The translations under genes were made by a program, and so were the position numbers. Shown piece by piece: positions 8,037 to 53,483 of a stretch of 64,000 bases of DNA. How positions within the stretch are numbered: the first letter of the stretch is position 1; the number at the start of each line of letters is the position of its first letter. The notes beneath the pieces are model-generated. The model searched no databases, had not been told where the DNA came from, and saw only the letters and a program-made list of their open reading frames with translations. The stretch lies in the NCBI RefSeq assembly GCF_044324785.1, contig NZ_CP172127.1; one strand, given 5' to 3'. This DNA is from Escherichia coli. Its GTDB lineage: Bacteria > Pseudomonadota > Gammaproteobacteria > Enterobacterales > Enterobacteriaceae.

Positions 8037-9233
<1,197 letters not shown>

Positions 9234-23624: not shown

Positions 23625-24038
23625 TAATACTATTCCTGCCCTGTAATTTACGGGCAGGGTATATCAACCGGAAATAGCCTACTGACATCCATGTATAAAG
23701 CCACATAATTATTTTGTTGATGTATCTTACCTAATACGTAAGCGTAAAGCCAATGCCGTCTGTAACTCCTGATCCTTGCAGACTAAATGTAAGCGCTCCT
23801 TCTGTGCCGTCTTGTGGTGGTTGTCCTGTCTGGCAACAATCGCGTCCATCTATTGATGGACACGAATGATGAATTCTCAGACAACAAAAGATATCACCGG
23901 CTTTCGCTCTTATTTTCCAGATGTATTGCGACTAATATTCGAAGAGCAATTATCTGTTCGGGCTATCGCACTGGAGCAGTTAGGCCTCAGTCATTCCACC
24001 GTTCATAATATCTTTCAACGGTTTAATGCCTCTGGCAT

Positions 24039-24111
24039 GTAAGCGTAAACCGACCGTTGTATTGACGCTTATTTATAGGGGAGAACTACGTTCCATGGCA
24101 GGAGTTCGTCA
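24039..24111 (-). mobile_element. IS66-family terminal fragment (duplicate of the 24994-25066 tip)
   Basis: GTAAGCGTAAACCGACCG... plus about 55 bp identical or near-identical to the end of the IS66 copy at 24994. Confidence 0.55.
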
Positions 24112-24182
24112 GTAAGCGTACAGCCTGAACCGTCTGGTCAGAATCTGACGCATTAGACAAAGTGGTGTCCACAAAATAAGTA

Positions 24183-24584
24183 GTGGGAACCAAAGTGTCA
24201 GATATGCAGAAAAATGTGACTCCCGGCAGGCGAAAAGGCTGCCCTAATTATCCTCCCGAATTTAAACAGCTGCTCGTTGCTGCCTCCTGTGAACCCGGGA
24301 TATCCATCTCAAAACTTGCTCTTGAAAATGGCATTAACGCCAATCTGTTGTTCAAATGGCGACAACAATGGCGCGAGGGAAAGCTGCTATTACCTTCTTC
24401 AGAGAGCCCCCAGCTACTTCCTGTGACTCTCGATGCAGCTGCCGAACAGCCAGAATCGCTCGCAGAGGACCCGGAAACCCTCAGTATCAGCTGTGAGGTA
24501 ACGTTCCGGCACGGGACGCTCCGCTTCAATGGCAATGTCAGCGAAAAGCTCCTGACTCTGCTGATACAGGAACTGAAACGATGA
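24183..24584 (+). CDS. tnpA: IS66-family accessory protein TnpA (orfA)
   Basis: 133 aa; ...ISKLALENGINANLLFKWRQQW motif; preceded by IS66 IR GTAAGCGTACAGCC at 24112. Confidence 0.8.
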   Translation: MGTKVSDMQKNVTPGRRKGCPNYPPEFKQLLVAASCEPGISISKLALENGINANLLFKWRQQWREGKLLLPSSESPQLLPVTLDAAAEQPESLAEDPETLSISCEVTFRHGTLRFNGNVSEKLLTLLIQELKR

Positions 24585-24928
24585 TCCCGTTACCTTCCGG
24601 GACCAAAATTTGGCTGGTTGCCGGTATCACCGATATGAGAAATGGCTTCAACGGCCTGGCTGCGAAAGTACAGACGGCGCTGAAAGACGATCCCATATCC
24701 GGCCATGTTTTCATTTTCCGGGGCCGCAGCGGCAGTCAGGTTAAACTGCTGTGGTCCACCGGTGACGGGCTGTGCCTCCTGACCAAGCGGCTGGAGCGTG
24801 GGCGCTTCGCCTGGCCGTCAGCCCGTGATGGCAAAGTGTTCCTTACGCAGGCGCAGCTGGCGATGCTGCTGGAAGGTATCGACTGGCGACAGCCTAAGCG
24901 GCTGCTGACCTCCCTGACCATGCTGTAA
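24581..24928 (+). CDS. tnpB: IS66-family TnpB (orfB)
   Basis: 115 aa; MIPLPSGTKIWLVAGITDMRNGFNGLAAKV typical of IS66 orfB; the transposase orfC is missing. Confidence 0.8.
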   Translation: MIPLPSGTKIWLVAGITDMRNGFNGLAAKVQTALKDDPISGHVFIFRGRSGSQVKLLWSTGDGLCLLTKRLERGRFAWPSARDGKVFLTQAQLAMLLEGIDWRQPKRLLTSLTML

Positions 24929-25023
24929 ATCTCTTTATCCTGGTTGTCACAGAATAAGCCCGGTAAAATACGGGCTTATGAACGACATCTCTTGTAAGCG
25001 TCAACGGAGCACCGTATTGACGC

Positions 25024-26616
25024 TTATTTATTGGTGAGTACTACGTTCCATGGCAGGAGTTCGTCAACACAGTTGGAGGGCCATTCCGGCAGTACGCTCA
25101 GAATATGGCGCAGATACGCTTCCGGATCGATACCGTTCAGACGGCAGGTGCCGATCAGCCCGTACAGCAGTGCTCCACGCTCGCCGCCGTGATCGCTACC
25201 GAAGAACACGTAATTTTTCTTTCCGAGACAGACTGCACGAAGCGCTCTTTCCGCTGTGTTATTGTCCGCTTCTGCCAAACCATCATCACTGTAATAACAG
25301 AGGGCGTCCCACTGATTCAGTACATAGCTGAACGCTTCGCCCAGTCTGGATTTTTTCGACAGCGTGCCATTCTTCTCCACCATCCATTCATGCAGCGACG
25401 TCAGTAACGCTTTGCTTCGCTGCTGCCTGGCTGCAAGACGCTCTGACTCTGGTAATCCCCGTATTTCATCCTCGATGGCGTACAGTTCACTGATTCACTT
25501 CAGGGCTTCTTCTGCCGTCGCACTTTTGCTGCTGATGTATACATCGTGGATTTTTCGCCGGGCATGGGCCCAGCACGCAACTTCTGTCAGTGCACCACCT
25601 TCACGTTCTGCACTGAACAACCTGTCGTAACCTGTGAACGCATCCGCCTGCAGGATACCCCGGAAGGGGCGAAGGTGTTGCTCCGGGTGTTTCCCCTGCC
25701 GGTTCGGCGAGTACGCGAACCAGACCGCTGGAGGAGATGACGAACCCACATTGCGATCATCCCGGACATACGTCCAGATACGCCCTGTTTTCGCCTTTTT
25801 CTGACCCGGTGCCAGTACCTTTACCGGTGTGTCATCAGTGTGAACCTTGCGGGTGTTCATTACATAACGGTACAGGGCATCATTCACCGGTGTCATTAAC
25901 TGGCAGCACGCGTCAACCCAGTTGGAGAGTAAGGCCCGGCTCAGTTCGACACCCTGGCGGGCAAAGATTTCACTCTGACGATACAGTGGCAGATGTTCGC
26001 AGTATTTTCCCGTTAACACGCGGGCAAGTAATCCGGGGCCCGCGATACCACGCTCTATCGGGCGGGACGGCGCCGGTGCTTCAACAATACAGTCACATTT
26101 TGTACAGGCTTTTTTTACCCGTTCTGTGCGGATCACTTTCAGGGCACTGCTCACCAGTTCCAGCTGTTCAGCGCTGACTTCCCCCAGATAATCCAGCTCA
26201 CCGCCACACTCCGGGCAACAGCTTTCTTCTGGCTCCAGGCGGTGTATTTCACGGGGAAGGTGTGCCGGTAACGGACGACGATGGCGCGACTGTCGCAACT
26301 GGCGGGGAACCTGAGGATCGTCTTCCCGCCCACTGTAACGATCGCTGTCCTGTTCACGTTGTTTCAGCAGAGCCTCAGCCAGTTCAACTTCACGACGCAG
26401 TTTTTCAGAACGGGTACCGAACAGCATCCGGTGCAGTTTTTCTATCTGAGCCCGCAGATGTTCTATTTCCCGTTCATCTTCTTCGATCTTTTCTTCGGCA
26501 CGTGCCAGTGCAGAGCGCAGGAAGGCCTCCGTCTCTTCAACCAGACTCAGTTGCTGGTCTTTCTGACGGAGCTGGCTTTCCAGTTCTGCAATGCGAATGA
26601 GGTATTTCTGACTCAT
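25024..26616 (-). pseudogene. tnpC: IS66-family transposase orfC, split into two ORFs
   Basis: 373-aa N-terminal and 119-aa C-terminal ORFs in different frames, both with IS66 transposase sequence (coiled-coil N-terminus, CxxC zinc motifs, DDE region). Confidence 0.7.
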
Positions 26617-26646
26617 GGCCGTTTTTATAATGCGGCCAGGCGTTTT

Positions 26647-26997
26647 TTACAACATTGTCAGTGCGTTAAGGCGGAATGTTTTTGGCTGACGCCAGTCCAG
26701 CTTATCGAGGAGCATTGCCAGTTGCGAGCGGGTAATGGATACCTTGCCGTCACGTACCGCAGGCCAGATAAACTGGCCTTCCTCCAGGCGTTTGGTGAAC
26801 AGGCACAGACCATCAGCATCAGCCCAAAGAATTTTGACGGTGTCACCCCGTCGGCCACGGAAGATAAACAGGTGACCGGAGAAGGGATTATCATTCAGCA
26901 CATGTTGTACCTGTTCTCCCAGTCCGTTGAAGGATTTACGCATATCGGTAACGCCGGCAACGAGCCAGATACGGGTACCTGATGGGAGTGAGATCAT
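26647..26997 (-). CDS. tnpB: IS66-family TnpB (orfB)
   Basis: 115 aa; paralog of 24581-24928 (MISLPSGTRIWLVAGVTDMRKSFNGL). Confidence 0.8.
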   Translation of the reverse strand: MISLPSGTRIWLVAGVTDMRKSFNGLGEQVQHVLNDNPFSGHLFIFRGRRGDTVKILWADADGLCLFTKRLEEGQFIWPAVRDGKVSITRSQLAMLLDKLDWRQPKTFRLNALTML

Positions 26998-27419
26998 CTT
27001 CCCCTCCCGGTCAGTTCACGGATCAACACTGTGAGCAGCTCTGGCGATGGATTTTCCAGCGTCATGTTACCGTGACGGAATTCCACCTTGCAGGAACTGG
27101 CACTGACTCTGGTCTGAGTGGAAGTGGATAAAGACGGCGCAATGGCCGCCACAGGTTCTTTCTGCTCATCCGGCGTTATTTCTACAGGTAATAATTCAAC
27201 GCCAGTGTCAGAAGAGGTCGTTACCGGAAGACGCCGCGAAACACGCCCTTCGTTCTGCCAGAGCCTGAGCCATTTGAAAATAACATTATCATTGACGCCA
27301 TTTTCACGTGCAATCTGTGCAACACAAGCTCCAGGTTGTGATGCCAGTTCCACCATACGAAGTTTGAATTCATTCGAATAGTTTTTACGAGGTTCTTTTC
27401 GCCAGTCCTGTAATTCCAT
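26994..27419 (-). CDS. tnpA: IS66-family TnpA (orfA)
   Basis: 141 aa; ...FKLRMVELASQPGACVAQIARENGVNDNVIFKWLRLWQNEGR. Confidence 0.8.
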   Translation of the reverse strand: MELQDWRKEPRKNYSNEFKLRMVELASQPGACVAQIARENGVNDNVIFKWLRLWQNEGRVSRRLPVTTSSDTGVELLPVEITPDEQKEPVAAIAPSLSTSTQTRVSASSCKVEFRHGNMTLENPSPELLTVLIRELTGRGR

Positions 27420-27504
27420 ACTTAGATGTCCGTCTATATCAGATGGGCGTCTAAGTTACCAATTCTCGTCTGATGGCTACATACGGCGGTCAGTTTACGC
27501 TTAC

Positions 27505-28740
27505 CTTTATCCCGACAGACGACGTATATTTACCAGTAAGGCCAACCCGGTTGCGCCCTTTGAACCAGAAGTCAAACGTCAGGCTGTCATGGCACTCTGT
27601 ACACGACAAGTATCAGCCAGTGAAATCGCCAGGCGTATTGGTGTCAGTCGTGCGGTATTGTATAAATGGAAAGATAAAATTATCGGCAACAGTGCTTACC
27701 AGACTATGCGTAAACATAACGAACCTTCCCTGGAGGCAGAACGCGATGCGTTGCGGGAGGAAGTCGCCCGACTGAATCAGGAAATACGCCGCCGGCAGAT
27801 GGAGCTGGATATTCTGAAAAAGGCGGAGGAAATCATAAAAAAAGACCCGGGCATCAGTATCAGTCACCTGAACAACAGAGAGAAAACGAAGATCGCTGAT
27901 GCCCTGAGACAAACATATCCCCTGACAGAATTACTGCATGTTCTGGGCCTTGCCCGTAGCAGTTATTTTTATCACCGGGCTGCACTGAAAGCCGGTGATA
28001 AATACGCCACGATACGTACGATGCTGACAGATATATTTAACAGTAATTACCAGTGTTATGGCTATCGTCGCCTGCATGCGATGCTCAGGCATGAGGGGGG
28101 GCGGCTATCAGAAAAGGTTGTACGCAGACTTATGGTGGAAGAACAGCTTGTCGTCAGCCGTAACCGTCGTCGCCGCTACAGCTCATATTGCGGAGAAATC
28201 GGACCGGCTCCGGATAACCTTATCGCCAGAGATTTTAAGGCGGAGCAACCTAATCAGAAATGGCTGACAGATATCACGGAGTTCCACCTCCCTGCAGGTA
28301 AAGTCTGGCTATCATCGGTGGTGGACTGCTTCGATGGAAAAGTTGTGAGCTGGTCTCTCAGTACACGCCCCGATGCTGAACTGGTCAACACTATGCTGGA
28401 TAGCGCTGTCGAAACGTTAAATGCTGGCGAACGACCGGTGATACACAGTGACAGAGGTGGGCATTATCGCTGGTCAGGCTGGCTGGAAAGAGTGAATGCA
28501 GAAGGTCTTATTCGCTCAATGTCCCGCAAAGGATGTTCACCTGATAATGCGGCATGCGAAGGCTTTTTCGGCAGACTGAAAACGGAAATGTATCATGGGC
28601 GTAAATGGTCGGGCATCACGCCAGAAAAGTTCATGCAGCAAGTGGATACTTACATCAGATGGTATAACGAGCGGCGTATAAAATTATCGCCGGGTGCAGT
28701 CAGCCCCAAAATGTACCGCCAACAATGCGGGCTGGAATGA
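27505..28740 (+). mobile_element. IS3-family transposase gene, 5'-truncated by the IS66 insertion
   Basis: Reading frame opens right at the IS66 end without the usual N-terminal HTH start; contains a DDE integrase core (WLTDITEF, HSDRGGHYRW, CSPDNAACEGFFGRLKTE); longest Met-initiated ORF 27589-28740. Confidence 0.7.
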
Positions 28741-29047
28741 TAAAGCAGTCCAGGAAATCGTCCGCATCCCCAGAACGGTCAAACATCGTGGCGTTGACAA
28801 CGGGTTCCTGAGTCCGGTGAAGCGCCGGTTACTGGAAAATGTTGTGTACGTCATAACAGAAACGGAGAGAAAAACGGCGATGCAAATCAGGCGGAGAAGG
28901 GTGTATCAGCGGTTACTGAAGGTTGACCCGCTGAAGTGCATCCTGTGCGGAGGTCAGATGCGGTTTACGGGGCTGAAGCGGGGCTACCGTCTGGCAGAGC
29001 TGGTCATGATGCATGAGCCACTGGCACGACAGCGGGTATACAGCTGA
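28694..29047 (+). other. Possible transposase C-terminal fragment (CxxC zinc motif), family uncertain
   Basis: 117-aa ORF ...CILCGGQMRF... lying among IS debris; no confident family assignment. Confidence 0.25.
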
Positions 29048-29631
29048 GAGCCGCAGAGGGGAAGTTGCGTCCATTTTTTGAGGAATGGAGCAAAAAATCA
29101 TCACAGATATAAAAAATCAATCAATGAAAGCCATTTAATTGCCGGTGCATTGTGGATGCAGTCCTCATGGTACGTAACCAGAGTTGAATAAACATCCATT
29201 TTTTTGTGTTTTTTTAACCTCCCCGGGTTTTTAATTCCTGTCGATTAAAAGTGTTAGATTATTTGGTTAAGAGTTCTCTCGTCCTATTTATTCAGGCGTT
29301 ATCACGGATATGCAGATCGCTAAGTCAGTTGTAAGAAAACCAGACAGTGCACATCATTATACCTAGGTCTTCTCTGGAAAAATACTTAGGAATAATTTAT
29401 GTAAAACAGGTTGTCGTCTTCATGATTTAAACGCAGTACATATATATACTCTATAATAAATACAGGGAGTATCACGAGACGTCTGGATAAGAGGAATAAC
29501 CAGAATAAATTGGTAAGGAATAAAGACACTTATTTCTATTGAGAAAAAACATTCATCCTGATGTGATTAGTATCAATGAAATAATGTGCTTGTATGGTTG
29601 ATAAAAAATGCATCACTAAAGAAAAAACAGT

Positions 29632-32600
29632 ATGAATAAGAATATACGAATTTTACAATTTCTGGTCAGTATACTTTATTCTGTGCAGTCTCATTTTTCT
29701 GGTGCGCAAACAATACAACTGAATGGTAATGGTATACCTGAAAGTATAACCAGGAGTATTACAGGTGTTGATGGAAACGCGGCGCTTAATATCAGCGTGC
29801 CGTATAAAACAAGTTATACTCAAAATATACTATCTGTTGAAAGCAGTATTAACATCAAAGGAGGAACAAGCAATACATCAATCGGTGGTGCAGGTGTCTA
29901 CGGTGAAAACTTTACGCTAAATAATAATGGTAGTGTTTGGGGAGGAGATGGATATAATGGTGGAATTGCTGTTAGTGGCAACAAAATATCTATAAACAAT
30001 TACAGAAATGTATATGGGGGTAATGGTCTTGGTGGCTCAGGAAGTAGCGGAGGTGCAGGGTTAAGCGGGGATGATATTATAGTTGATAATTACAGAAGTA
30101 TATACGGAGGTGATGATGTAGGTGGGACAGGTGGTTCCGGTGTAACCGGTAGCAATATTACAGTGCATAATTCCGGAGGAATATTGGGCGGTAATGGCGT
30201 AAACGGTGGTGATGGTATTAATGGTAGTAATCTTTTCATTACTAACGACAACATGATATCTGGAGGATATGGAATAAAACAAGGGGGAGATGCTATTTCT
30301 GGAAATCAAATCACTTTGAATAATAACGGTATTGTTCAGGGGGGATATGGCCCCGACGGTGGTTGCTCTGTTTATGGAGAAGATATCCATATTAATAATC
30401 ATGGTAATCTTTCAGGATTATATAATAGCCAAAAAGATGCTTATAATACATCAATAATTTTTTCTGGCGGGTATAATTCATTAGATATTTATTCAGATTC
30501 TGTGATTAATGGTGATATTAAACTAGCTAGTATACCTGTTAATGGTACAAATGAATTAATTATTAAAAACATCAATAACGCAACAGCAATTAATGGTGGG
30601 CTAATGATTGGGAATGGCTCATCTGTTTATCTGTCAGGCAAGAACTCCATTTTTAACGGAAATATAAGTATTGATGAAGACGCATCTATGAACCTGTCTG
30701 TAGGAAATGCTAATGTTCACGCAAATACTATTACATTAAAAAGTGATTCATGGCTTAATATAGACACATCAATTAAGAACTGGACTCAGGACTATTACAC
30801 ATTATTGTCGTCAGACACAGGTATCTCGATCGCTGATAATAGTCACATTGTACAATACAATGTATTACTGACAGAAGGTGCTGAAAGTTATGTTTATACG
30901 TCTTTAAATGACGACGATAACAAACTGATATCCATGCTGAGATGGAATAATACAAAAGGGATGGGATATGGAACCTTTAATATAGAAAAAGATGCCACTC
31001 TGAACATAGGCGTTTCTCTTTCCGATAATCTTTCACCTTTATTATATGATGGCTGGGACGGCAAAAGTCTGACAAAATCAGGTAATGGTACTCTTATACT
31101 TTCTGCAACAAACAATTATACAGGAAATACAGAGGTTAAATCTGGCGTATTAATTCTTGCTGCACCTGATGCTCTTGGTCGGACTGAGTATTTATATTTA
31201 TCCCGTGGCGCAGAACTGGATATGAATGGGTATCCTCAGACAATAAGCAAACTACTGACGGCTGCAGGCTCTGTGCTGAACATTCATGGCGGAAGTCTGA
31301 TACTGAATAATGGAGGAGAATCTGCAGGTACTATTGCAGGGGATGGTTCTCTGAACATAAATGGGGGAATGCTTGATATAACGGGTAATAATCGTAATTT
31401 TTCCGGTGTTTTTACCGTGAATAAGGGGGCTCATTTGGCTGTATCCACGGCTGATAATCTGGGGACAGCCTTTGTTGATAACTATGGCACATTAACTCTG
31501 AACAGTACATCAGCATGGCAGCTTACCAACAATATCAGTGGTTATGGTAATGTTCGCAAGACGGGAGCAGGTGCACTGAACATTAGCGATAACGCAAAAT
31601 GGACCGGGATGACAGATATTATTCAGGGGACAGTGATACTGGGGAACGCAGATTCACCGGTGATGCTCGGCAGTAACCAGGTCATTGTTGAAGAGCAGGG
31701 CAAACTCTCCGGGTTTGGGGGCGTTGCAGGAAATCTGAGCAATAGTGGTATAGTCGATCTCACTACATATATGCCGGGTAATATACTGACTGTCGGAGGG
31801 AATTACACTGGCAGAAATGGACTTATTCTCCTCCAGACAGAAACAGGTGGTGACAATTCGAAAACAGATCGTCTGGTGATTAAAGGTAATGCCAGTGGCC
31901 GTACCCGTGTCGCTGTTACTCAGGCCGGTGGTACTGGTGCAGAGACACTTAATGGGATTGAAGTGATTCACGTCAGTGGCAATGCTGATAATGCTGAATT
32001 CATTCAGACGGAACGTATTACAGCCGGAGCTTATGATTACATACTGAAACGTGGTCAGGGGATTAACAGCACTAACTGGTATCTGATTAGCAGAAAAGAC
32101 ATTCCTGTACCACAACCTGAAGCTGTACCGGAAAGCCATGATAATAATTTGCGTCCTGAGGCAGGTAGCTATGTTGCCAGTATTGCTGCTGCAAATAATC
32201 TGTTTGTAACGAATCTGTATGAACGACAGGGACAGGAGTTGTATATCAGCCACATGACAGGAGAAGAAAATGAAGCAGGTATCTGGATGTATAATAAAGG
32301 AAAACATAATCGCTGGCGTGACAACAGTAGTCAGCTGAGAACCCGGGGGAATAGCTACGTTGTGTTAATAGGGGGAGATATAGCTCAGTGGAGCCTGAAT
32401 GGTACCGATCGCTGGCATACAGGTATGATGGCTGGCTATGGTCATAATAATAACAGTACGAATGCCCTGAGCACCGGATACCATTCGGAAGGAAGAATGA
32501 ATGGATACACAGCGGGTCTTTATGCAACATGGTATGCCAATGATGAAACACACAATGGTTCTTATCTTGATAGCTGGCTGCAATACAGCTGGTTTGATAA

Positions 32601-33129
32601 TCATATAAATGGAGAACGGCTGCCTGCTGAGTCATGGAAGTCAAAAGGGTTTACGGTATCTCTGGAAGCAGGATATTCATGGAAGGCTGGAGAGTTTACC
32701 GACAATTACAAGGGAAGTCATGAATGGTATGTTCAGCCGCAGCTTCAGGTTGTCCGGATGAATGTAAAATCAGACAAATATCATGAAAGTAACGGAACCA
32801 GTATTGAAAATACCGGTAACGGAAATATTCTCACCCGCCTGGGAGCAAGAACATGGCTTACCAGCAAAAACGGTAAAAATACGCGGTATGCGGTTCCGTT
32901 CAGACCATTTGTGGAGGCACACTGGTTGCACAATAGTCGTGTTTTCGGCACCAGTATGAATGGTGTAAGTATATACCAGGATGGTGCGCGTGATATCGGA
33001 GAAATAAATGGTGGTGTTGTGGGAATGATAACACCAGAAGTAGCATTCCGGGCTGATGCAGGCATTCAACTTGGAGAACATGGATACCATAATACATCTG
33101 CCATGTTGAGTGTGGAATATCGTTTCTGA
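29632..33129 (+). CDS. Classical (type Va) autotransporter, AIDA-I-like passenger with Gly-rich beta-helix repeats
   Basis: 1165 aa; N-terminal leader, long passenger with repeated GG(x)G(x)G beta-strand repeats, C-terminal beta-barrel translocator ending ...SVEYRF; gene and upstream region visibly AT-rich. Confidence 0.85.
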   Translation: MNKNIRILQFLVSILYSVQSHFSGAQTIQLNGNGIPESITRSITGVDGNAALNISVPYKTSYTQNILSVESSINIKGGTSNTSIGGAGVYGENFTLNNNGSVWGGDGYNGGIAVSGNKISINNYRNVYGGNGLGGSGSSGGAGLSGDDIIVDNYRSIYGGDDVGGTGGSGVTGSNITVHNSGGILGGNGVNGGDGINGSNLFITNDNMISGGYGIKQGGDAISGNQITLNNNGIVQGGYGPDGGCSVYGEDIHINNHGNLSGLYNSQKDAYNTSIIFSGGYNSLDIYSDSVINGDIKLASIPVNGTNELIIKNINNATAINGGLMIGNGSSVYLSGKNSIFNGNISIDEDASMNLSVGNANVHANTITLKSDSWLNIDTSIKNWTQDYYTLLSSDTGISIADNSHIVQYNVLLTEGAESYVYTSLNDDDNKLISMLRWNNTKGMGYGTFNIEKDATLNIGVSLSDNLSPLLYDGWDGKSLTKSGNGTLILSATNNYTGNTEVKSGVLILAAPDALGRTEYLYLSRGAELDMNGYPQTISKLLTAAGSVLNIHGGSLILNNGGESAGTIAGDGSLNINGGMLDITGNNRNFSGVFTVNKGAHLAVSTADNLGTAFVDNYGTLTLNSTSAWQLTNNISGYGNVRKTGAGALNISDNAKWTGMTDIIQGTVILGNADSPVMLGSNQVIVEEQGKLSGFGGVAGNLSNSGIVDLTTYMPGNILTVGGNYTGRNGLILLQTETGGDNSKTDRLVIKGNASGRTRVAVTQAGGTGAETLNGIEVIHVSGNADNAEFIQTERITAGAYDYILKRGQGINSTNWYLISRKDIPVPQPEAVPESHDNNLRPEAGSYVASIAAANNLFVTNLYERQGQELYISHMTGEENEAGIWMYNKGKHNRWRDNSSQLRTRGNSYVVLIGGDIAQWSLNGTDRWHTGMMAGYGHNNNSTNALSTGYHSEGRMNGYTAGLYATWYANDETHNGSYLDSWLQYSWFDNHINGERLPAESWKSKGFTVSLEAGYSWKAGEFTDNYKGSHEWYVQPQLQVVRMNVKSDKYHESNGTSIENTGNGNILTRLGARTWLTSKNGKNTRYAVPFRPFVEAHWLHNSRVFGTSMNGVSIYQDGARDIGEINGGVVGMITPEVAFRADAGIQLGEHGYHNTSAMLSVEYRF

Positions 33130-33150
33130 TGTGTCGGTAATGACTCCAAC

Positions 33151-33654
33151 TTATTGATAGTGTTTTATGTTCAGATAATGCCCGATGACTTTGTCATGCA
33201 GCTCCACCGATTTTGAGAACGACAGCGACTTCCGTCCCAGCCGTGCCAGGTGCTGCCTCAGATTCAGGTTATGCCGCTCAATTCGCTGCGTATATCGCTT
33301 GCTGATTACGTGCAGCTTTCCCTTCAGGCGGGATTCATACAGCGGCCAGCCATCCGTCATCCATATCACCACGTCAAAGGGTGACAGCAGGCTCATAAGA
33401 CGCCCCAGCGTCGCCATAGTGCGTTCACCGAATACGTGCGCAACAACCGTCTTCCGGAGCCTGTCATACGCGTAAAACAGCCAGCGCTGGCGCGATTTAG
33501 CCCCGACATAGCCCCACTGTTCGTCCATTTCCGCGCAGACGATGACGTCACTGCCCGGCTGTATGCGCGAGGTTACCGACTGCGGCCTGAGTTTTTTAAG
33601 TGACGTAAAATCGTGTTGAGGCCAACGCCCATAATGCGGGCTGTTGCCCGGCAT
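33151..33654 (-). CDS. insB: IS1 InsB (made as InsAB by frameshift)
   Basis: 167-aa ORF with IS1 InsB sequence; overlaps insA as in IS1. Confidence 0.85.
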
Positions 33655-33848
33655 CCAACGCCATTCATGGCCATATCAATGATTTTCTGGTGCGTACCGG
33701 GTTGAGAAGCGGTGTAAGTGAACTGCAGTTGCCATGTTTTACGGCAGTGAGAGCAGAGATAGCGCTGATGTCCGGCGGTGCTTTTGCCGTTACGCACCAC
33801 CCCGTCAGTAGCTGAACAGGAGGGACAGCTGATAGAAACAGAAGCCAC
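33573..33848 (-). CDS. insA: IS1 InsA
   Basis: 91 aa [43 protein letters not shown]... Confidence 0.9.
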
Positions 33849-34320
33849 TGGAGCACCTCAAAAACACCATCATACACTAAATCAGTAAGTTGGCAGCATC
33901 ACCCGTTCATTTTCTGAGCCTGTAAAACATGTGGTGATATAGTCTGAGAGCATAAAAGTTGAGATTCTGTGTATCAAGTCCTGTCTTGGCACCGAATGAA
34001 TATTGCTTACGAAGCCCCTTCATGCTTTCCTTGAGAACAATAATTTTATCTTTATGTGAATCTCATTTTTTATAATGATGTCAGATGATTGAAATGCTAA
34101 ATTATATCTGAATCAACTTTTCCTTTGCTAAAGGTATAGAAATAACTGCAAGGCTGTATTTTGTAATTGCCAATTTAAAAATGTCAATTTGTTTTTAATT
34201 ATGTTTTTGTAATAAGTTTGAAGACACAAAAAATAATATAATAACAAAAATCCTCCAGCCTTGTAGGCCAGAGGATAAAATACTTAATTGAGGAAAACAT
34301 CAGGGAAAAGTATTTCTGAC

Positions 34321-35505
34321 TTAACTTTCCCGGCTGGAGAGTGAATCAATGTAATCAGCGTACCATTGCATCATTTCACGGCGGCCATCGAGATACAGGG
34401 CATGATTATAGGTACCCCTGATGGAATTTTTATCCACATGAGCTAACTGCATTTCAATCCAGGCAGAATTAAAGCCCTGTTCGTGCAGAATGGTACTCAT
34501 GGTGTGACGAAAACCATGACCGGTTGCCCTGCCATCGTAACCGATACGTTTGAGCACCATATTGATGCTGGCTTCGCTCATTGGCTTGTTGATATCACAA
34601 CGTCCCGGAAAAACCAGCCGGTATTGCCCGGAGAAAGTTTTGAGCTGCAGCAGAATGTCAGTGGCCTGTCGTGACAGTGGTACGACATGTTTACGTCGCA
34701 TTTTCATGCGGCTTTCAGGGATTGTCCACAGTGCATTATCAAAATCAATTTCTGACCATTCAGCGGACCGTAGCTCAATGGTTCTGAGACCTGTCAGAAG
34801 CAGCAGATTTGTCGCCATGCGGGTAACAGGACTGCCATGATACTCAGCGAGCTTCCGGAGAAAAACAGGGAGCTCATCTGCTCTCAGGTGGGGGAAATGT
34901 GCAGCTTTTGGCGCCGCCAGCGTACTGGTCAGTTCAGATGCCGGATTGACAGTGGCTCGTCCGGTGGCGATGGCATAACGAAAAATCTGATTACAGTATT
35001 GACGCACCTTACGAAGTTTTTCCAGCGAGCCACGTTTTTCTATGCGGCGCAGAATTTCCAGCATTTCCAGCGGGAGGATATCCGTAACGCTTCGTTTGCC
35101 CAGATACGGGAAAATATCTTTATCCAGCGCTTCCAGTACGCTTCTGGCGTAACTTTCAGACCATGACAAAGATTTATGCTGGTGCCATTCCGTAGCGAGG
35201 GCATGGAACGTATTGGTGGCAGAGATTTTCTGAGTGAGTTTTTCCTTTCGCTTCTTTTCGCCCGGGTCACCACCTTCGGAGATGATTTTTCGGGCATCGT
35301 CGCGTTTGATTCTGGCCTCAGCAAGGGAGACGTCGGGATAGACGCCGAGGGCCAGTTTTTTCTCTTTTCCTGCTATCCGGTATTTAAGCCGCCAGTAGCG
35401 GGCACCCGTGGTTTTTACCAGCAGATATAAACCACGTTCGTCAGAGAGTTTATAGTCTTTTTCTTTAGGTCTGGCTGTTTCGACCTGTCTGGCTGTAAGT
35501 GCCAT
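34321..35505 (-). CDS. int: P4-type tyrosine integrase
   Basis: About 394 aa from MALTARQVETARPKEKDYKLSDERGLYLLVK (P4-int N-terminus); C-terminal catalytic region with GHGFRHT and Tyr; next to the tRNA-Phe 3' fragment. Confidence 0.9.
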   Translation of the reverse strand: MALTARQVETARPKEKDYKLSDERGLYLLVKTTGARYWRLKYRIAGKEKKLALGVYPDVSLAEARIKRDDARKIISEGGDPGEKKRKEKLTQKISATNTFHALATEWHQHKSLSWSESYARSVLEALDKDIFPYLGKRSVTDILPLEMLEILRRIEKRGSLEKLRKVRQYCNQIFRYAIATGRATVNPASELTSTLAAPKAAHFPHLRADELPVFLRKLAEYHGSPVTRMATNLLLLTGLRTIELRSAEWSEIDFDNALWTIPESRMKMRRKHVVPLSRQATDILLQLKTFSGQYRLVFPGRCDINKPMSEASINMVLKRIGYDGRATGHGFRHTMSTILHEQGFNSAWIEMQLAHVDKNSIRGTYNHALYLDGRREMMQWYADYIDSLSSRES

Positions 35506-35680
35506 ATGGGGGCTCCTGAAACTGACTGAACACAATGAGCCCCCACCGGGGCCCCCAATGAACGCTTGATTGAGAGAGAGTTCAGTAGAGTCTGGTGGAG
35601 TTCAGAATGTTCAGATTGCTTGTAACGATGTGATTATACTTGAGTTTCGTGGAGTTCGGGAGATGAATCTGGAAGTGAAA

Positions 35681-35730
35681 GTGGTGCCCGGACTCGGAAT
35701 CGAACCAAGGACACGGGGATTTTCAATCCC
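35681..35730 (-). other. Partial tRNA-Phe gene, 3' 50 nt only (displaced attachment-site copy)
   Basis: Minus-strand sequence equals the 3' 50 nt of E. coli tRNA-Phe (as I recall it) including anticodon loop and CCA; identity stops where the 5' half should be. Confidence 0.8.
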
Positions 35731-35782
35731 CGTGCCATAATTGGCTGTGTCAGTTGGTTACACACCATTGAGGTGTGTACTA

Positions 35783-36661
35783 ATGAAAATACTGCCCGTT
35801 GTCTCCACAAAAGGTGGCGAAGGTAAATCAACACAATCCGCAAACCTGGCTGGTTTTCTCGCCGATGCAGGTATCCGTACCCTGCTGATTGACGGAGATC
35901 ATGCTCAGCCCACGGCAAGCAACATCTTTCCGCTGACATATGAAGCGTCAGCCGGTCTTTTTGAGTTGCTGATGCGCACGGCTGACCTCAGTCATCCCGA
36001 TAACATCATTTCCCGCACGGCTATCGACGGACTCGATCTGATAGTCTCCAATGACCCTCATGAGCAGTTAAAAACTGCGATGCTTCACGCCCCGGATGGT
36101 CGTCTGCGCCTCCGGAATGTCCTGCAGCATCCGCTTTTTCTGAACAACTACGATGTCATTGTAGTTGATTCTCAGGGAGCACGTTCTGTCATGCTCGAAA
36201 TGATTATGCTGTCGGCCACTGATTCGGTTGTCGGGATGGTCAATCCGGTACTCCCTGATGTGCGCGAGTTTATTCGGGGCACTGTCAATGTTATGGAGAA
36301 CCTGCTGCCTTACCGGGAGCTGGGGATACCCCTGCCGAAAGTACGCACGCTGGTTAACTGCATGGATTATACGGCACTGGCCAGGAAGACGCTGGATGAG
36401 CTGGCCGGAATTATTCAGACCGGTCGTTACAGCAGACAGTTACCTGAAGGTGCGGTTTCCCTTCTTTCCACACAGATTTACGACCTGAATATTTACAAGC
36501 AGGGGCATGCGGCTGGTCAACCCGTACATCGTCTCGAAAAAGAATCCACACGTCGCAGTGATTCCGCGCTTGTCACGATGCACAGCCTGGCCTGTGAACT
36601 CTTTCCTGAGTGGAAACAGGCGTTTGACGGGCTGCTGGCGAACGGGGGAATACGTCAGTGA
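35783..36661 (+). CDS. parA: ParA/Soj-family partition ATPase
   Basis: MKILPVVSTKGGEGKSTQSANLA deviant Walker A; first gene inside the ICE boundary. Confidence 0.9.
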   Translation: MKILPVVSTKGGEGKSTQSANLAGFLADAGIRTLLIDGDHAQPTASNIFPLTYEASAGLFELLMRTADLSHPDNIISRTAIDGLDLIVSNDPHEQLKTAMLHAPDGRLRLRNVLQHPLFLNNYDVIVVDSQGARSVMLEMIMLSATDSVVGMVNPVLPDVREFIRGTVNVMENLLPYRELGIPLPKVRTLVNCMDYTALARKTLDELAGIIQTGRYSRQLPEGAVSLLSTQIYDLNIYKQGHAAGQPVHRLEKESTRRSDSALVTMHSLACELFPEWKQAFDGLLANGGIRQ

Positions 36662-37735: not shown

Positions 37736-39124
37736 ATGTCTGAACGCTATATTCCACGCTCCGTTGATGCAGAGCAGGCCGTGCTGGGCGGCCTGATGCT
37801 CGATAATGAACGCTGGGATGAGGTGGTACTGATGCTCCGGGGGGAGGATTTTTCTCTGGCCGCACACCGGGTGATATTCCGCACCATGTCAGAGCTGGCA
37901 ACCAGCGGTCAGCCGTTCGACCTCATCACGCTGAGTGAGCATATTGAGAAAACAAACAATATTGAGGCACTGGGTGGTTTCGCTTATCTGGCTGAACTCA
38001 GCAAAAATACGCCTTCTGCAGCCAATATTATCGCTTATGCCCGTATTGTTGCTGAAAAGAGCATGCTGCGTCAGTTGCAGGAGACGGGGAATGCGCTGAT
38101 TACGGATGTGGCCGCACCGGATGCGACACCACGCACTGTTCTTGAATCCGCTGAACGTCGGCTCTTTTCACTTTCACAGACTGGCATGTTGCATGAGCGA
38201 TGTGAAGTCAGTCTCACCTCGGCTATGGAGCTGGCGCTGCGTCAACTGGAAGAGGGACTGAACGCCGGCGGGATGACGGGCACGCCCACGGGATTTGATG
38301 AACTGGATAAGATGACCTGTGGTCTGCAGCCCGGCGACCTCATTCTTCTGGCTGCACGCCCGTCTATGGGGAAAACAGCGCTGGGCCTTACCTTCTGTCT
38401 TAATGCCCTGTGTAACCGGACCGATGAAACGGTATTTCTTTTCAGTATCGAAATGTCCCGGGAGCAGCTGATTCTGCGTGTCCTGTCAATGCTCTCCAGG
38501 GTGGAGCTGACACGTCTTCGCAGCAGCATGATGAATGATGAAGAGTGGGCGAGAGTCACGGCAACCATGGGACGCTTCATGAATGAAGCGTCATTCATCG
38601 GAGATGGAAACCGCCTGATAATTGATGACACCTCCTTCCAGACGCCGTCATCGCTGCGTGCCAGCGCCCGTCGTTATGTCCGTCTGTATGGCAGACCTTC
38701 CCTGATAATGGTTGATTACCTCCAGCTGATTCGTTCTCCGGACCAGGAGAACCGAACGCAGGAAATTGCGGAAATATCCCGCGCCCTTAAGGCGTTAGGT
38801 AAAGAGCTGGGATGCCCGGTACTGGCACTGTCTCAGCTTAACCGTCAGGTGGAGCAGCGGGCGGATAAGCGCCCCAATAACGGTGACCTGCGTGATTCCG
38901 GGGCGCTGGAGCAGGATGCTGACCTCATTATGTTTATTTACCGTGATGAGGTTTATAACTCTGGCACGCTGGATAAGGGCGTTGCTGAAATCATTGTGAG
39001 CAAACAGCGGCAGGGGCCAACCGGAACGATACGGGTGAACTTCGACGGCCGCTACACCCTGTTTTCACCGTTTGAACGTGGATGGAATTTTGACCGTGCC
39101 GGAGGAAATGCGTATGTCAATTAA
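37736..39124 (+). CDS. DnaB-like replicative helicase (ICE-encoded)
   Basis: N-terminal DnaB domain (EQAVLGGLMLDNERWDEV), Walker A ARPSMGKTALGL, C-terminal RecA-like motifs; RBS GGAGG. Confidence 0.9.
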   Translation: MSERYIPRSVDAEQAVLGGLMLDNERWDEVVLMLRGEDFSLAAHRVIFRTMSELATSGQPFDLITLSEHIEKTNNIEALGGFAYLAELSKNTPSAANIIAYARIVAEKSMLRQLQETGNALITDVAAPDATPRTVLESAERRLFSLSQTGMLHERCEVSLTSAMELALRQLEEGLNAGGMTGTPTGFDELDKMTCGLQPGDLILLAARPSMGKTALGLTFCLNALCNRTDETVFLFSIEMSREQLILRVLSMLSRVELTRLRSSMMNDEEWARVTATMGRFMNEASFIGDGNRLIIDDTSFQTPSSLRASARRYVRLYGRPSLIMVDYLQLIRSPDQENRTQEIAEISRALKALGKELGCPVLALSQLNRQVEQRADKRPNNGDLRDSGALEQDADLIMFIYRDEVYNSGTLDKGVAEIIVSKQRQGPTGTIRVNFDGRYTLFSPFERGWNFDRAGGNAYVN

Positions 39125-40766
39125 ACGAAATCATTCCGTTGATCTGGGAGCTGCCATCATGCAACCGGGCCGTCAGGCCAGCACGACGGGTAACGTGGTG
39201 GCGCTGGGGGAAACACCGATGATTCTGACGCTGGATCAACTGCGCCCCAACCCGGATAACCCGAGGACCACGCGTAATCCCCGGTACGACGATATTAAAA
39301 GTTCAATTTTCTCCCGTGGACTGGATACGGTGCCCAAAGTCACCCGGATACCTGAGAGTGAGCCGGATATCTATATTTTCAGCGATGGTGGTAACACGCG
39401 ATATCAGATCCTGAAAGAGCTGTGGGAGGAGACCGGCGATCAGCGTTTCTATCGTATTCATGTGCTTTTCAAGCCATGGCCGGGACGGCTTCAGTGCGTC
39501 ATTGGTCACCTGGCTGAGAATGAAGTCAGGGGCGAACTGACGTTTATTGAAAAGGCCCGGGGTATCCATAACGCCCGGATGATTTATGAGGAGTCGATGC
39601 AGCGAACCGTGACGATCAGGGAACTGGCGTCACTGCTGACGGATGAAGGACTTCCGGTAAGCCACTCATCTGTCAGCAGGATGGAGCATACTCTGAAATA
39701 TCTGTATCCGTGGATCCCCGATCTTCTGGAATCAGGATTAGGAAGACCGCAGATCAATTCACTGTTGTCTCTCCGGCAGGATGCGGAACGCATCTGGGGA
39801 CAGTTTGCGGTGGCAACAGAGAACGGGGCGGATTTTGACCGCGTGTTTGGTGAATGCTGCAGCAAATTCAATTCACCGGAGCTCTGGTCACTGGAGATGT
39901 TCCGGGATGAGCTGATTGGTGATCTGCTGAAAGCGTTACCACATCCGGTGCTGGATTATGACCGCTGGTTGCTTGAACTGGATCCGCGGGAGCGTAACCG
40001 ACGTCACCATTTTGGCGAACCTGAGCCGGTGCTCATTCCCGCAGACAGTGATGCGATGCCAGAGCCTGCGACTGACGGTGTGTCGGCAGTGACGGCGGAG
40101 AAGAACAGCGGAAGGGAGCAGTCTGTGATTTCCGCACCGGCTGACCATGACACCGTCATGAATACGGAGCAATCCCCGGCTGGAAAGGCGGAGAGTTCAG
40201 TTATCGAACAACGCGAAGAACGCCGTAGAAAGGAAGTCCAGCCGGATATGTATGGTGGTGAAGAAACATACAGCGGCGATTACGAAGAGGATGGCGATAC
40301 CCGTGATGCTGCGGATCTGCCGGTAACGTCACCGGAAGAGGGGGCTCAGCAGAGCAGCGGTGAAATATTCAGTGAGCCGGTATTCAGTGTTGGTGAACTG
40401 GATGATATCGAATATCTGCAGAATGAGGCATTTCACCTGGCATGGGAGCTGGCGTCACACACAGGCTGTGTCGATGAGCTGGCTATGGACAGGGAAAGCG
40501 AACTGTCTGCGGGATTCGGCGCGGCAGAGGCGAATTGTTCTCCGGTCATGGCATTTCTTGTCAGACTGACCGGTGAGGAGGTTCTGCGGGTCAATCCGGT
40601 TTCCCTTGATGCACTGCTGATAGGCGGCAGTACTGAAGAAGACCTGCCGTTGCTTGATGATGAACATGCAGGAAAGTTGCTTCGCCTGCTGGGTGTGTTG
40701 CGTCGTCTGCGGGGGCTGCAGCGTATGGTGGAAGACGAGAGTGAGGAAGGGCGCGATGAATGCTGA
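39114..40766 (+). CDS. ParB-like nuclease-domain protein (ICE ParB family)
   Basis: N-terminal ParB/Srx-like domain followed by a long acidic low-complexity C-terminal region. Confidence 0.75.
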   Translation: MSIKRNHSVDLGAAIMQPGRQASTTGNVVALGETPMILTLDQLRPNPDNPRTTRNPRYDDIKSSIFSRGLDTVPKVTRIPESEPDIYIFSDGGNTRYQILKELWEETGDQRFYRIHVLFKPWPGRLQCVIGHLAENEVRGELTFIEKARGIHNARMIYEESMQRTVTIRELASLLTDEGLPVSHSSVSRMEHTLKYLYPWIPDLLESGLGRPQINSLLSLRQDAERIWGQFAVATENGADFDRVFGECCSKFNSPELWSLEMFRDELIGDLLKALPHPVLDYDRWLLELDPRERNRRHHFGEPEPVLIPADSDAMPEPATDGVSAVTAEKNSGREQSVISAPADHDTVMNTEQSPAGKAESSVIEQREERRRKEVQPDMYGGEETYSGDYEEDGDTRDAADLPVTSPEEGAQQSSGEIFSEPVFSVGELDDIEYLQNEAFHLAWELASHTGCVDELAMDRESELSAGFGAAEANCSPVMAFLVRLTGEEVLRVNPVSLDALLIGGSTEEDLPLLDDEHAGKLLRLLGVLRRLRGLQRMVEDESEEGRDEC

Positions 40767-52904: not shown

Positions 52905-53483
52905 ATGAAAATATCCCTTCTTTTTTCCGCGCTGTCTGCCTGTGTGTTGCTGGCGGGGTGCCAGAGTCCGCAAAAACTGCAGCAGAGGGCGGCTGCCGTC
53001 CCGGTACCGTCGGTGACAGTCAGCAACAATGTCCGTCCGGCAAATCCGGATGTGTACGCCGGTGCGGCGACACCGGAGGTGGTGCGTTATGACCGCTATC
53101 TGCTGGTTAACACGGCACCGGATACGGTACAGCGTGACCCGCTTTCCCAGGTGATTGACATCCGCATTCCGGCATCACTGAAGCCGACGGTGGCGGATGC
53201 GATGCGTTATGCCCTGAAACAGTCCGGCTACACACTCTGCGCCACGGGGCCTGCCAACGGTGTGCTCTACCGTCAGCCGCTACCGGCCGTGCAGTACCAG
53301 ACCGGGCCGGTCAGACTGCGGAGCGCGCTGCAGATGATGGCGGGGCCGGCATGGCAGCTTGAGGTGGATGATGTGCAGCGCGTGGTCTGTCACAGTCTGC
53401 GTGAGGGTTATCAGTTACCGGCACGCCAGCTGGCGCCGGTACCGGCGGTGGTGAAGGTATCCGGTGCGGAGCAGAAAAAATGA
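52905..53483 (+). CDS. pilL: PilL-like lipoprotein (first gene of the GI-type T4SS module)
   Basis: 192 aa; lipoprotein signal with lipobox LLAGC; position and size match the PilL-like gene of PAPI-1/SPI-7-type elements. Confidence 0.6.
   Translation: MKISLLFSALSACVLLAGCQSPQKLQQRAAAVPVPSVTVSNNVRPANPDVYAGAATPEVVRYDRYLLVNTAPDTVQRDPLSQVIDIRIPASLKPTVADAMRYALKQSGYTLCATGPANGVLYRQPLPAVQYQTGPVRLRSALQMMAGPAWQLEVDDVQRVVCHSLREGYQLPARQLAPVPAVVKVSGAEQKK

Follow-up and report, generated by a model that had tools for sequence, protein, structure and literature searches.

Two elements on either side of a tRNA-Phe remnant

The window, that is the whole 64-kb stretch of Escherichia coli DNA that was analysed, holds two mobile elements separated by a short piece of tRNA-Phe (Table 1). 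To the left lies an IS-rich island headed by a P4-type integrase, and to the right begins an ICE of the SPI-7/PFGI-1/PAPI-1 type. The piece between them matches the 3' end of canonical E. coli tRNA-Phe (GGGGATTGAAAATCCCCGTGTCCTTGGTTCGATTCCGAGTCCGGGCACCA) at 50 of 50 positions, a match that was absent from all of 100 shuffled sequences. The initial annotation had identified these 50 nt and their strand correctly, but its coordinates, 35681-35730, were one base off. ARAGORN found zero tRNA across the whole window, the Rfam tRNA model scored the fragment at 22.6 bits against a gathering score of 29, aligning model positions 9-63 only and without the acceptor stem, and no match to the tRNA 5' half was found in the 26 nt upstream. 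A complete tRNA at this place is ruled out by ARAGORN and the Rfam score, and the question whether the match belongs to a complete gene is answered in the negative. With its cloverleaf incomplete, the fragment is a stranded att copy and not a functional tRNA-Phe gene, just as had been proposed. The 64-kb window lacks a second copy, even when only the last 23 nt are sought with up to 3 mismatches.

The integrase resembles P4 Int over its full length (42% identity, 405 aligned positions, E 1e-107) and has the Pfam domains Arm-DNA-bind_3 (PF13356), Phage_int_M (PF22022) and Phage_integrase (PF00589); this similarity and the position of its ORF bear out the claim that a P4-type integrase heads the island. 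Read on the minus strand, the fragment (35731 to 35682) comes first and the integrase (35505 to 34321) follows, so that the integrase lies 3' of the tRNA-Phe end and is co-oriented with it. The spacer between the two carries repeated GAGTTC(A/G)G-type motifs (repeats D1, D3 and D4), which are candidate arm-type sites. A distal direct repeat of 19-23 bp for this island was not found in the window (up to 3 mismatches), and the island runs past the left end of the window.

On the other side of the fragment the ICE starts with parA, as had been claimed, its ATG at 35783 lying 51 bp from the fragment. In the collection, 524 blocks list exactly this ParA protein. A consensus scan of 35400-35900 gave no sigma-70-like promoter, which is weak evidence. 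The assignment to the PAPI-1/SPI-7 family stands on a series of marker proteins with NCBIfam matches above curated cut-offs, and the ICE is 99.2-100% identical to those of strains CM2 and APEC E19035.

Table 1. Coordinates of the features of the window
Feature	Position	Strand	Remarks
IS-rich cargo, collinear with the selC island of strain CH4793	1-33135	.	99.5-99.97% collinear with L004/L005
aatA-like autotransporter, 3,498 bp	29632-33129		
IS1, 768 bp	33136-33903	-	border of native phe-type island head and cargo
Non-coding segment 3' of integrase	33904-34320	.	common to phe-type islands and selC island
P4-type tyrosine integrase, 394 aa	34321-35505	-	intP4 type of GI-pheV/pheU; P4 Int similarity; Pfam; NF007246 match
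Spacer (P4-type island arm), 176 bp	35506-35681	-	tRNA end to integrase start; identical in ICE-less pheV/pheU loci
tRNA-Phe 3' 50 nt, anticodon stem to CCA	35682-35731	-	exact match; no gene by ARAGORN; Rfam sub-threshold
Perfect dyad CACGGGGATT-TTC-AATCCCCGTG (inverted repeat I2)	35712-35734	.	putative ICE-integrase core site and overlap region
ICE arm, att core to parA	35732-35782	+	8-bp inverted repeat TACACACC/GGTGTGTA at 35759-35779; D-arm-like mimic
SPI-7/PFGI-1/PAPI-1-type ICE, first 28.3 kb	35732-64000	+	NCBIfam matches above curated cut-offs
parA (soj-like), first ICE gene	35783-36661	+	ParA-family matches; annotated ParA in CM2, E19035
dnaB-PI (SPI-7-type DnaB)	37736-39124		in ICE; NCBIfam 683.9, cut-off 655
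parB (PFGI-1 ParB)	39114-40766		in ICE; NCBIfam above cut-off
STY4528 family	44729-45994		in ICE; NCBIfam above cut-off
PFL_4669 family	46935-47645		in ICE; NCBIfam above cut-off
Topoisomerase III	47658-49676		in ICE
STY4534 family	50386-50850		in ICE; NCBIfam above cut-off
ssb	51166-51723		in ICE
pilL	52905-53483		in ICE
TIGR03759	54228-54983		in ICE; NCBIfam above cut-off
traD (TIGR03754)	57987-60140		in ICE; NCBIfam 1086.7, cut-off 647.6
TIGR03746	62759-63406		in ICE; NCBIfam above cut-off

ICE boundaries and the site of crossover

The predicted ICE integrase and its tRNA would lie about 50-57 kb past the end of the window, and the far end was read from relatives. The closest complete genomes are those of strains CM2 (pheV) and APEC E19035 (pheU), in which the same ICE measures 78-86 kb. 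The intact tRNA-Phe, ICE integrase and relaxase that had been expected at the far end are all present in these two relatives: the tRNA is accompanied by an identical ICE arm, a 366-aa integrase, the TraI relaxase, UvrD and type IV pilus genes. This far-end junction is common to eight complete genomes at an identity of at least 99.5%.

At the parA end, ICE homology ends exactly at 35731/35732 in 16 other, independent loci bounded by the same fragment. The sequence past CCA depends on the context, and is the P4-type island arm, the native pheV terminator with kps, or the native pheU terminator with cadC. The same ICE (99-100% identical) occurs at pheV or pheU with differing neighbours. A comparison with isolates that have one of the two elements, as had been suggested, recovered both kinds: island-only loci, in which a full canonical tRNA-Phe (pheV or pheU) is followed by the same spacer and then the identical integrase, and ICE-only loci, such as pheU-ICE-fragment-cadC, in which the ICE occurs without this integrase. 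The fragment has a double role: it is the attR of the ICE and at the same time the P4-type island's attL. For annotation it provides the exact ICE boundary.

The intact tRNA-Phe beside the ICE integrase in CM2 and E19035 has a variant T-stem, GGTGG/CCGCC, with compensatory changes, whereas the T-arm of the stranded fragment is canonical. The two 50-nt att copies, attL of the relatives and attR, accordingly differ at 4 T-stem positions. In light of this pattern, it was concluded that the anticodon stem-loop is where the crossover occurred, and that the 3' part of the fragment is the displaced end of the old tRNA, which agrees with the earlier view of an old 3' end stranded between the elements. 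The exact crossover position probably falls inside the anticodon loop: the dyad I2 corresponds to the anticodon stem, lengthened to 8 bp by ICE-side bases, around the 7-nt loop TTGAAAA. The comparison provides an in-silico map of the integration crossover, with a core at the anticodon loop (the att copies are identical over the first 22 nt only) and a tRNA that is a hybrid, its T-stem changes being compensatory.

Integration would proceed by recombination between a 50-nt tRNA-Phe-like attP and the chromosomal tRNA, carried out by the ICE tyrosine recombinase encoded beyond the window, with strand exchange in the anticodon stem-loop, where the loop is placed between inverted 8-bp arms. With a T-arm and a 3' acceptor strand newly brought in by the ICE, the tRNA-Phe beside the ICE integrase would be a hybrid but intact, and the old 3' part of the tRNA, with whatever followed it, would be displaced to the parA end of the ICE. 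Here the displaced follower would be the head of a resident island, its 176-bp arm and then its integrase. Excision of the ICE would rejoin the canonical tRNA-Phe to the island, and the attP of the circular ICE is predicted to consist of the ICE integrase arm, GGGGATTGAAAATCCCCGTGTC, a variant or canonical T-arm and the parA arm. This copy of the ICE is presumably still mobile.

Very probably, then, the window contains the internal junction of a two-element tandem array at tRNA-Phe (pheV or pheU). The middle att copy of such an array lies in the window and the tRNA-proximal copy is seen in the relatives; no distal copy was found in the window.

Order of arrival and the unusual cargo join

The integrase-fragment-parA junction is present in 7 of 5426 complete genomes, and its recurrence could be taken to mean that the P4-type integrase is a second recombination module of the ICE, the whole moving as one unit. 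Among the examples checked, the cargo to the left of the integrase varies, with LeoA in CM2, raffinose genes in VTB96937v and the aatA type in the window, and this fits the idea. Yet the same integrase and the same spacer follow an intact tRNA-Phe without any ICE, and the same ICE is found without this integrase; on these two grounds the integrase was rejected as the ICE's own recombinase. Moreover, the far end of the ICE encodes an integrase of its own that is unrelated to the P4-type one (22% identity over 131 aa), and ICE homology halts exactly at the att core, making a composite element extremely improbable.

As regards the order in which the two separate elements arrived, sequence alone fits both entry of the ICE into an occupied tRNA and entry of the island into the attR fragment of the ICE. 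In the latter case, the ICE would have integrated into a free tRNA-Phe, and the P4-type island would later have used the T-loop/3'-end core of the fragment. The 23-nt core on which GI-pheV integrases act is complete and canonical in the fragment, whereas the hybrid tRNA beside the ICE integrase departs from it by 2 mismatches, a difference that would make the fragment the favoured target. ICE-only states such as the pheU example above do exist, and a tandem of ICEPm1 and ICEPm3 formed via integration into attR has been reported (PMC11278526). This order is nevertheless unlikely: the ICE lies between the tRNA and neighbours of very different kinds, one of them the kps region, which has no integrase, and its near identity across unrelated contexts at both phe loci suggests that the ICE is the recent, mobile partner. 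Furthermore, the collection has this exact integrase in 452 blocks and, among the places listed, 10 of 10 with the identical protein have it beside pheV or pheU with the ICE absent, against the few genomes with the tandem junction. We infer that the island came first and the ICE second, which is the parsimonious order and which favours the original reading of an ICE integrated into a tRNA-Phe that already held the integrase-bearing island.

The island itself has a mixed make-up. Only 33904-35731 is demonstrably native to a phe-type island, and the IS-rich cargo beyond IS1 is of the kind otherwise carried by selC islands. Among its contents are LacI/PTS/transketolase genes, a YadA-like gene, a TonB-dependent receptor and IS66, IS3 and IS91 elements. 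The part tested (window 24000-34520) is carried at a coverage of at least 80% by 110 complete genomes, at selC where checked. Identity of the cargo with AGI-3 of BEN2908 was considered and discarded, the AGI-3 cargo being different. The join of selC-type cargo to a phe-type integrase is in no other complete E. coli genome; a search with its pattern matched the window alone, with 0 matches in GTDB representatives, JGI metagenomes and IMG/VR, and the join is also missing from the genomic contexts examined for the autotransporter and parA. Because a selC-type cargo sits on this integrase through a unique join, the left-hand element may be a recombinant instead of a simply integrated island. The recombination zone, 34385-34464, lies just within the 3' end of the integrase, and this 80-bp crossover interval is perfectly identical to both putative parents. 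Import of the selC integrase 3' end from a phe-type integrase was rejected, since other selC integrases match there too, and for this reason a direction of transfer cannot be read from the region.

Could the join have been made in silico, the assembly passing from selC-island cargo to a phe-type integrase via the shared integrase 3' end? The perfectly shared interval and the absence of the join from every other sequence searched are in keeping with such a chimera, and both parental structures do occur together in single genomes, e.g. FDAARGOS_1287. However, the window passes several multicopy IS elements, implying long-read contiguity, and a mosaic integrase 3' end occurs naturally, as in a pheV integrase with selC-type SNPs (L014), so that a chimera is very unlikely. 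The fragment junction, for its part, was seen independently in the 7 complete genomes, and the finding of a tandem junction therefore does not depend on the left-hand join.

For this type of ICE, conjugative transfer has been reported, and Hfr-like chromosomal transfer from the integrated oriT has been shown (PMC13127887). One may imagine, although it is quite unlikely, that the array acts as one mobilisation unit in which the ICE exports the adhesin island, either Hfr-like from the integrated oriT or by composite excision, with the selC/phe join as a footprint of ICE-driven recombination; if this were true, the join would illustrate the reshuffling of island cargo from one tRNA locus to another. 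In any event, the immediate proximity of an aatA-type adhesin island to a conjugative element that is known for mobilising chromosomal DNA is a flag for virulence gene mobility.

Relationship to known elements

For ICEs of the ICEEc2 type, pheV and pheU are both known hotspots (PMC11537424; PMC13127887). ICEEc2 of E. coli BEN374 belongs to the pKLC102/PAGI-2 (= PAPI-1/SPI-7) family, according to Roche et al. 2010 as cited in PMC11537424, PMC6761156 and PMC13127887. Compared by published description, the window ICE comes close to the ICEEc2 type: the two are alike in being E. coli ICEs 3' of a phe tRNA gene, pheV or pheU, and in their PAPI-1/SPI-7-type core genes; the relatives of the window ICE, which come mostly from poultry, also share the type IV pilus genes and, at the tRNA end, the trio of integrase, relaxase and helicase. 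The window ICE differs in its tandem arrangement with a P4-type-integrase island.

Similarity to SPI-7 of Salmonella Typhi is evident in the SPI-7-named NCBIfam markers (SPI-7-type DnaB, STY4528, STY4534) above cut-offs, but there is no Vi or SopE-type cargo in the 28 kb of ICE in the window. Integration into the 3' ~50 nt of tRNA-Phe is shared with SPI-7 and with ICEPm1/2/3 of Proteus mirabilis. The ICEPm elements use pheV or pheU, form tandems and have repeats of 52 bp (PMC11278526), as against 50 nt for the window-type ICE, whose attL and attR disagree at 4 T-stem positions; the tandem partner in the window is a non-conjugative P4-type island and not a second ICE. PAPI-1 of Pseudomonas aeruginosa is likewise bounded by soj/parA on one side and, next to the tRNA, by its integrase on the other, and can use two tRNA loci (PMC11278526). 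In the reconstructed circle, parA would, as in PAPI-1, lie directly 3' of attP, co-oriented with the integrase operon. The target of PAPI-1 is, however, tRNA-Lys (PMC6761156), rather than tRNA-Phe.

The island head is like GI-pheV and GI-pheU with intP4 (PMC11537424) in having a P4-type integrase directly after a tRNA-Phe 3' end and a modular, IS-rich, mosaic cargo. Unlike in those islands, the integrase adjoins only a 50-nt tRNA remnant, a 19/23-bp attR is absent from the window, and the cargo beyond IS1 is the usual cargo of selC. Two directly oriented elements with a common att site at the same target are also found where ICEs accrete in tandem with cis-mobilizable elements, as in the ICESt1/CIME and SXT-R391 arrays, in so far as these are cited in PMC11278526, but the partners in the window use different integrases and different crossover sites in the tRNA (anticodon loop versus T-loop/3' end).

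ICEEc2/SPI-7-family ICEs at pheV/pheU, P4-type islands at these loci and tandem arrays at tRNA genes have all been described already, and the junction is a textbook tandem-island junction, not a new one. In related genomes, PGAP (NCBI) wrongly labels the same fragment tRNA-Ser or tRNA-OTHER, and the 'tRNA-Ser' calls in related RefSeq records consist of this fragment together with the D-arm-like stretch of the ICE arm.

The tandem junction at tRNA-Phe

The initial annotation read this region as a tandem junction of a P4-integrase island and an integrative conjugative element (ICE) at tRNA-Phe, and both flanks and the relatives support that reading. Tandem island junctions of this kind are already known, and the structure is an ordinary example. 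In E. coli, both tRNA-Phe loci, pheV and pheU, have been described as hotspots for ICEs of the ICEEc2 type (PMC11537424; PMC6761156), and such ICEs transfer and also drive Hfr-like chromosomal transfer (PMC13127887); the window ICE resembles ICEEc2 by published descriptions of type and locus. The related ICEPm family uses either phe locus, forms tandems and carries tRNA-Phe repeats of 52 bp, compared with the 50 nt of tRNA-Phe found here (PMC11278526), and the GI-pheV islands, which have intP4 and 19/23-bp repeats, have been thoroughly characterised (PMC11537424). The one unusual feature is on the island side, where cargo and integrase meet in a unique join; this does not make it a new type of system.

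The fragment separating the two elements, GGGGATTGAAAATCCCCGTGTCCTTGGTTCGATTCCGAGTCCGGGCACCA on the minus strand, matches E. coli tRNA-Phe at 50/50 positions, from the anticodon stem (5' side) through to the CCA (0/100 shuffles matched). Its identity had been recognised correctly, with coordinates (35681-35730) one base off. It is, as also proposed, a displaced attachment-site copy and not a gene: unrelated sequence replaces the 26 nt expected upstream for the acceptor 5' strand and D-arm, ARAGORN finds no tRNA gene in the whole window, and the Rfam tRNA model gives 22.6 bits, below the gathering score of 29, in an alignment that takes in D-arm-like sequence belonging to the neighbouring element and is without the acceptor stem. 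Because of this D-arm-like mimic, RefSeq (PGAP) labels the fragment and adjacent ICE arm 'tRNA-Ser' or 'tRNA-OTHER' in related genomes; these calls were rejected, as ARAGORN detects no tRNA there. The fragment keeps the 23-nt core that GI-pheV integrases use (PMC11537424), so that it serves the ICE as attR and the island as attL at once.

On the island side, the assignment of the integrase as P4-type is borne out by full-length identity of 42% to phage P4 Int (E 1e-107) and a matching domain order (Arm-DNA-bind_3, Phage_int_M, Phage_integrase). The exact protein is listed for 452 assembly-collection blocks; all 10 of the places shown have it directly after intact pheV (yqgA side) or pheU (cutA-dsbD-yjdC side), with no ICE. 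Window 33904-35731 matches contiguously in 9 of these 10 loci (98.6-99.5%), where a full canonical tRNA-Phe is followed by the same spacer as in the window. A native phe-type island head is demonstrable only over 33904-35731.

The right-side element is an ICE of SPI-7/PAPI-1/PFGI-1 type beginning with parA, as first described; its first 28.3 kb lie in the window. After parA come SPI-7-type DnaB, PFGI-1-type ParB, the STY4528, PFL_4669 and STY4534 families, TIGR03759, TraD (TIGR03754) and TIGR03746, all exceeding curated NCBIfam cut-offs. In the reconstructed circular ICE, parA would sit downstream of the ICE integrase operon; soj of PAPI-1 reportedly lies downstream of the integrase operon in the circular form. 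No sigma-70-like promoter was found between integrase and parA. A perfect inverted repeat lies just before parA, and a 36-bp tandem array occurs between the STY4528- and PFL_4669-family genes, every unit containing the near-palindrome GGTGCC-ACT-GGCACC. A minus-strand ORF of the array yields a 12-aa repeat, and its CM2 counterpart, different in length, is annotated hypothetical; the array could be coding, or iteron-like or centromere-like.

Features of the junction, the neighbouring elements and related loci
Feature	Coordinates	Strand	Description
YadA-like ORF	7983-9233		CAGGCT hexanucleotide run near 5' end, 8108-8152
Autotransporter ORF	29632-33129		3,498 bp, 1165 aa; IS91 remnant upstream, IS1 downstream
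IS1	33136-33903		
Integrase	35505 to 34321	minus	P4-type, 394 aa
Spacer		minus	176 bp, between fragment and integrase
tRNA-Phe fragment	35682-35731	minus	50 nt
Inverted repeat	35759-35779		8 bp, TACACACC/GGTGTGTA; 4 bp upstream of parA start
parA	start 35783		first ICE gene, 51 bp from fragment
Tandem array	46012-46832		22.8 copies, 91% matches
PGAP-mislabelled fragment copies	L002 13362-13439; L018 7007-7084; H13 (E24377A)		
CM2 ICE	pheV		~86 kb; yqgA, tRNA-Phe, 366-aa tyrosine recombinase, TraI-domain relaxase, UvrD helicase, type IV pilus genes ... parA, fragment
E19035 ICE	pheU		~78 kb; same ICE and integrase protein as CM2, after cutA-dsbD-dicD
Hybrid tRNA-Phe, variant T-stem	L003 21850-21925 (CM2 pheV); L029 21417-21492 (E19035 pheU)		
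E19035 pheU, fragment end	L016 5541-7050		fragment, native pheU terminator, different 420-aa P4-like integrase
GIsul2-like element, CH4793	L005 16171-32541		16.4 kb

The far end of the ICE and the probable site of exchange

An intact tRNA-Phe, ICE integrase and relaxase had been predicted at the far end, and the prediction holds in the nearest relatives, since all three are present in the complete genomes with the closest ICE copies, CM2 (99.2-99.6% identical) and APEC E19035 (99.9-100%). The tRNA/ICE-integrase junction is common to 8 complete genomes at identities of at least 99.5%; beyond the catalytic fold, the integrase of the ICE has no relationship to the P4-type enzyme. In E19035 a terminator precedes the 420-aa integrase, so its island does not adjoin the tRNA 3' end in the way islands usually do.

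The intact tRNA beside the ICE integrase in CM2 and E19035 has the T-stem GGTGG...CCGCC, versus canonical CTTGG...CCGAG, two compensatory changes that leave both altered base pairs complementary, and in both strains an identical ICE arm comes next; in ICE-bearing genomes this T-stem is supplied by the ICE. Every parA-end fragment, at 16 loci besides the window, has the canonical T-arm; the ICE arm precedes all of them, and former tRNA-downstream sequence follows: a P4-island arm, the native pheV terminator and kps capsule cluster, or the native pheU terminator and cadC. Complete identity between attL and attR is thus confined to their first 22 nt, GGGGATTGAAAATCCCCGTGTC. At the ICE end, ICE bases lengthen the anticodon stem into a perfect dyad, CACGGGGA-TTGAAAA-TCCCCGTG. 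These comparisons are best read as a tyrosine-recombinase crossover within the anticodon loop, wherein the ICE would donate a new T-arm and 3' acceptor strand to the tRNA and the resident's old 3' part would be displaced to the parA end. The earlier proposal of a stranded old 3' end thus stands for the fragment's last 28 nt, which are the displaced resident end; the first ~22 nt fall within the exchange region and could have come from the ICE.

Order of arrival

Integration of the ICE second, into an occupied tRNA, is favoured over insertion of the island into the ICE's attR, two orders that sequence alone does not separate. The ICE is tRNA-proximal beside very different residents, including the integrase-less kps region, and is nearly identical across contexts and both phe loci. 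Moreover, the exact integrase is widespread (452 blocks) and ICE-less in the 10 places shown, and the integrase-fragment-parA junction is rare (7/5426 complete genomes).

The cargo and its join to the integrase

Window 1-34518 is collinear with the selC island (another tRNA site) of CH4793 at 99.5-99.97%, apart from one insert. This GIsul2-like element, absent from the window, holds an integrase, repA/repC, trbJKL, ars genes and ISCR2-sul2; at its insertion point the window has ~465 bp of the YadA-like gene (8121-8585), in which the CAGGCT run may vary in length. The cargo part tested (24000-34520) occurs in 110 complete genomes, at selC where checked, and the selC-type integrase ahead of it shares with the phe-type gene no more than its final ~200 bp and the spacer downstream. 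SNP mapping makes the window identical to the selC type up to 34464, and from 34385 to the phe-type integrase beside the ICE in VTB96937v and GCA_045884455.1; this sets an 80-bp crossover interval (34385-34464), inside the integrase 3' end.

The join, which lies in 33904-34524 and links cargo 1-33135 to the phe-type integrase, was not found in the 5426 complete genomes (best coverage 90%) and had 0 matches in GTDB representatives, JGI metagenomes and IMG/VR. As direct repeats ~0.8 Mb apart, pheV and selC could not undergo a simple intrachromosomal crossover without loss of the DNA between them, where essential genes are expected. The join could have arisen by gene conversion, by recombination linked to horizontal transfer, or as an assembly chimera. 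Mosaicism is common at the integrase 3' end and the window crosses several multicopy IS elements, which inclines the balance towards a real recombinant rather than a chimera. The tandem-junction finding is unaffected by this origin. Within the cargo, the autotransporter ORF, with its IS91 remnant upstream and IS1 downstream, is a candidate for the APEC adhesin gene aatA, whose published account it fits (PMC2944236).
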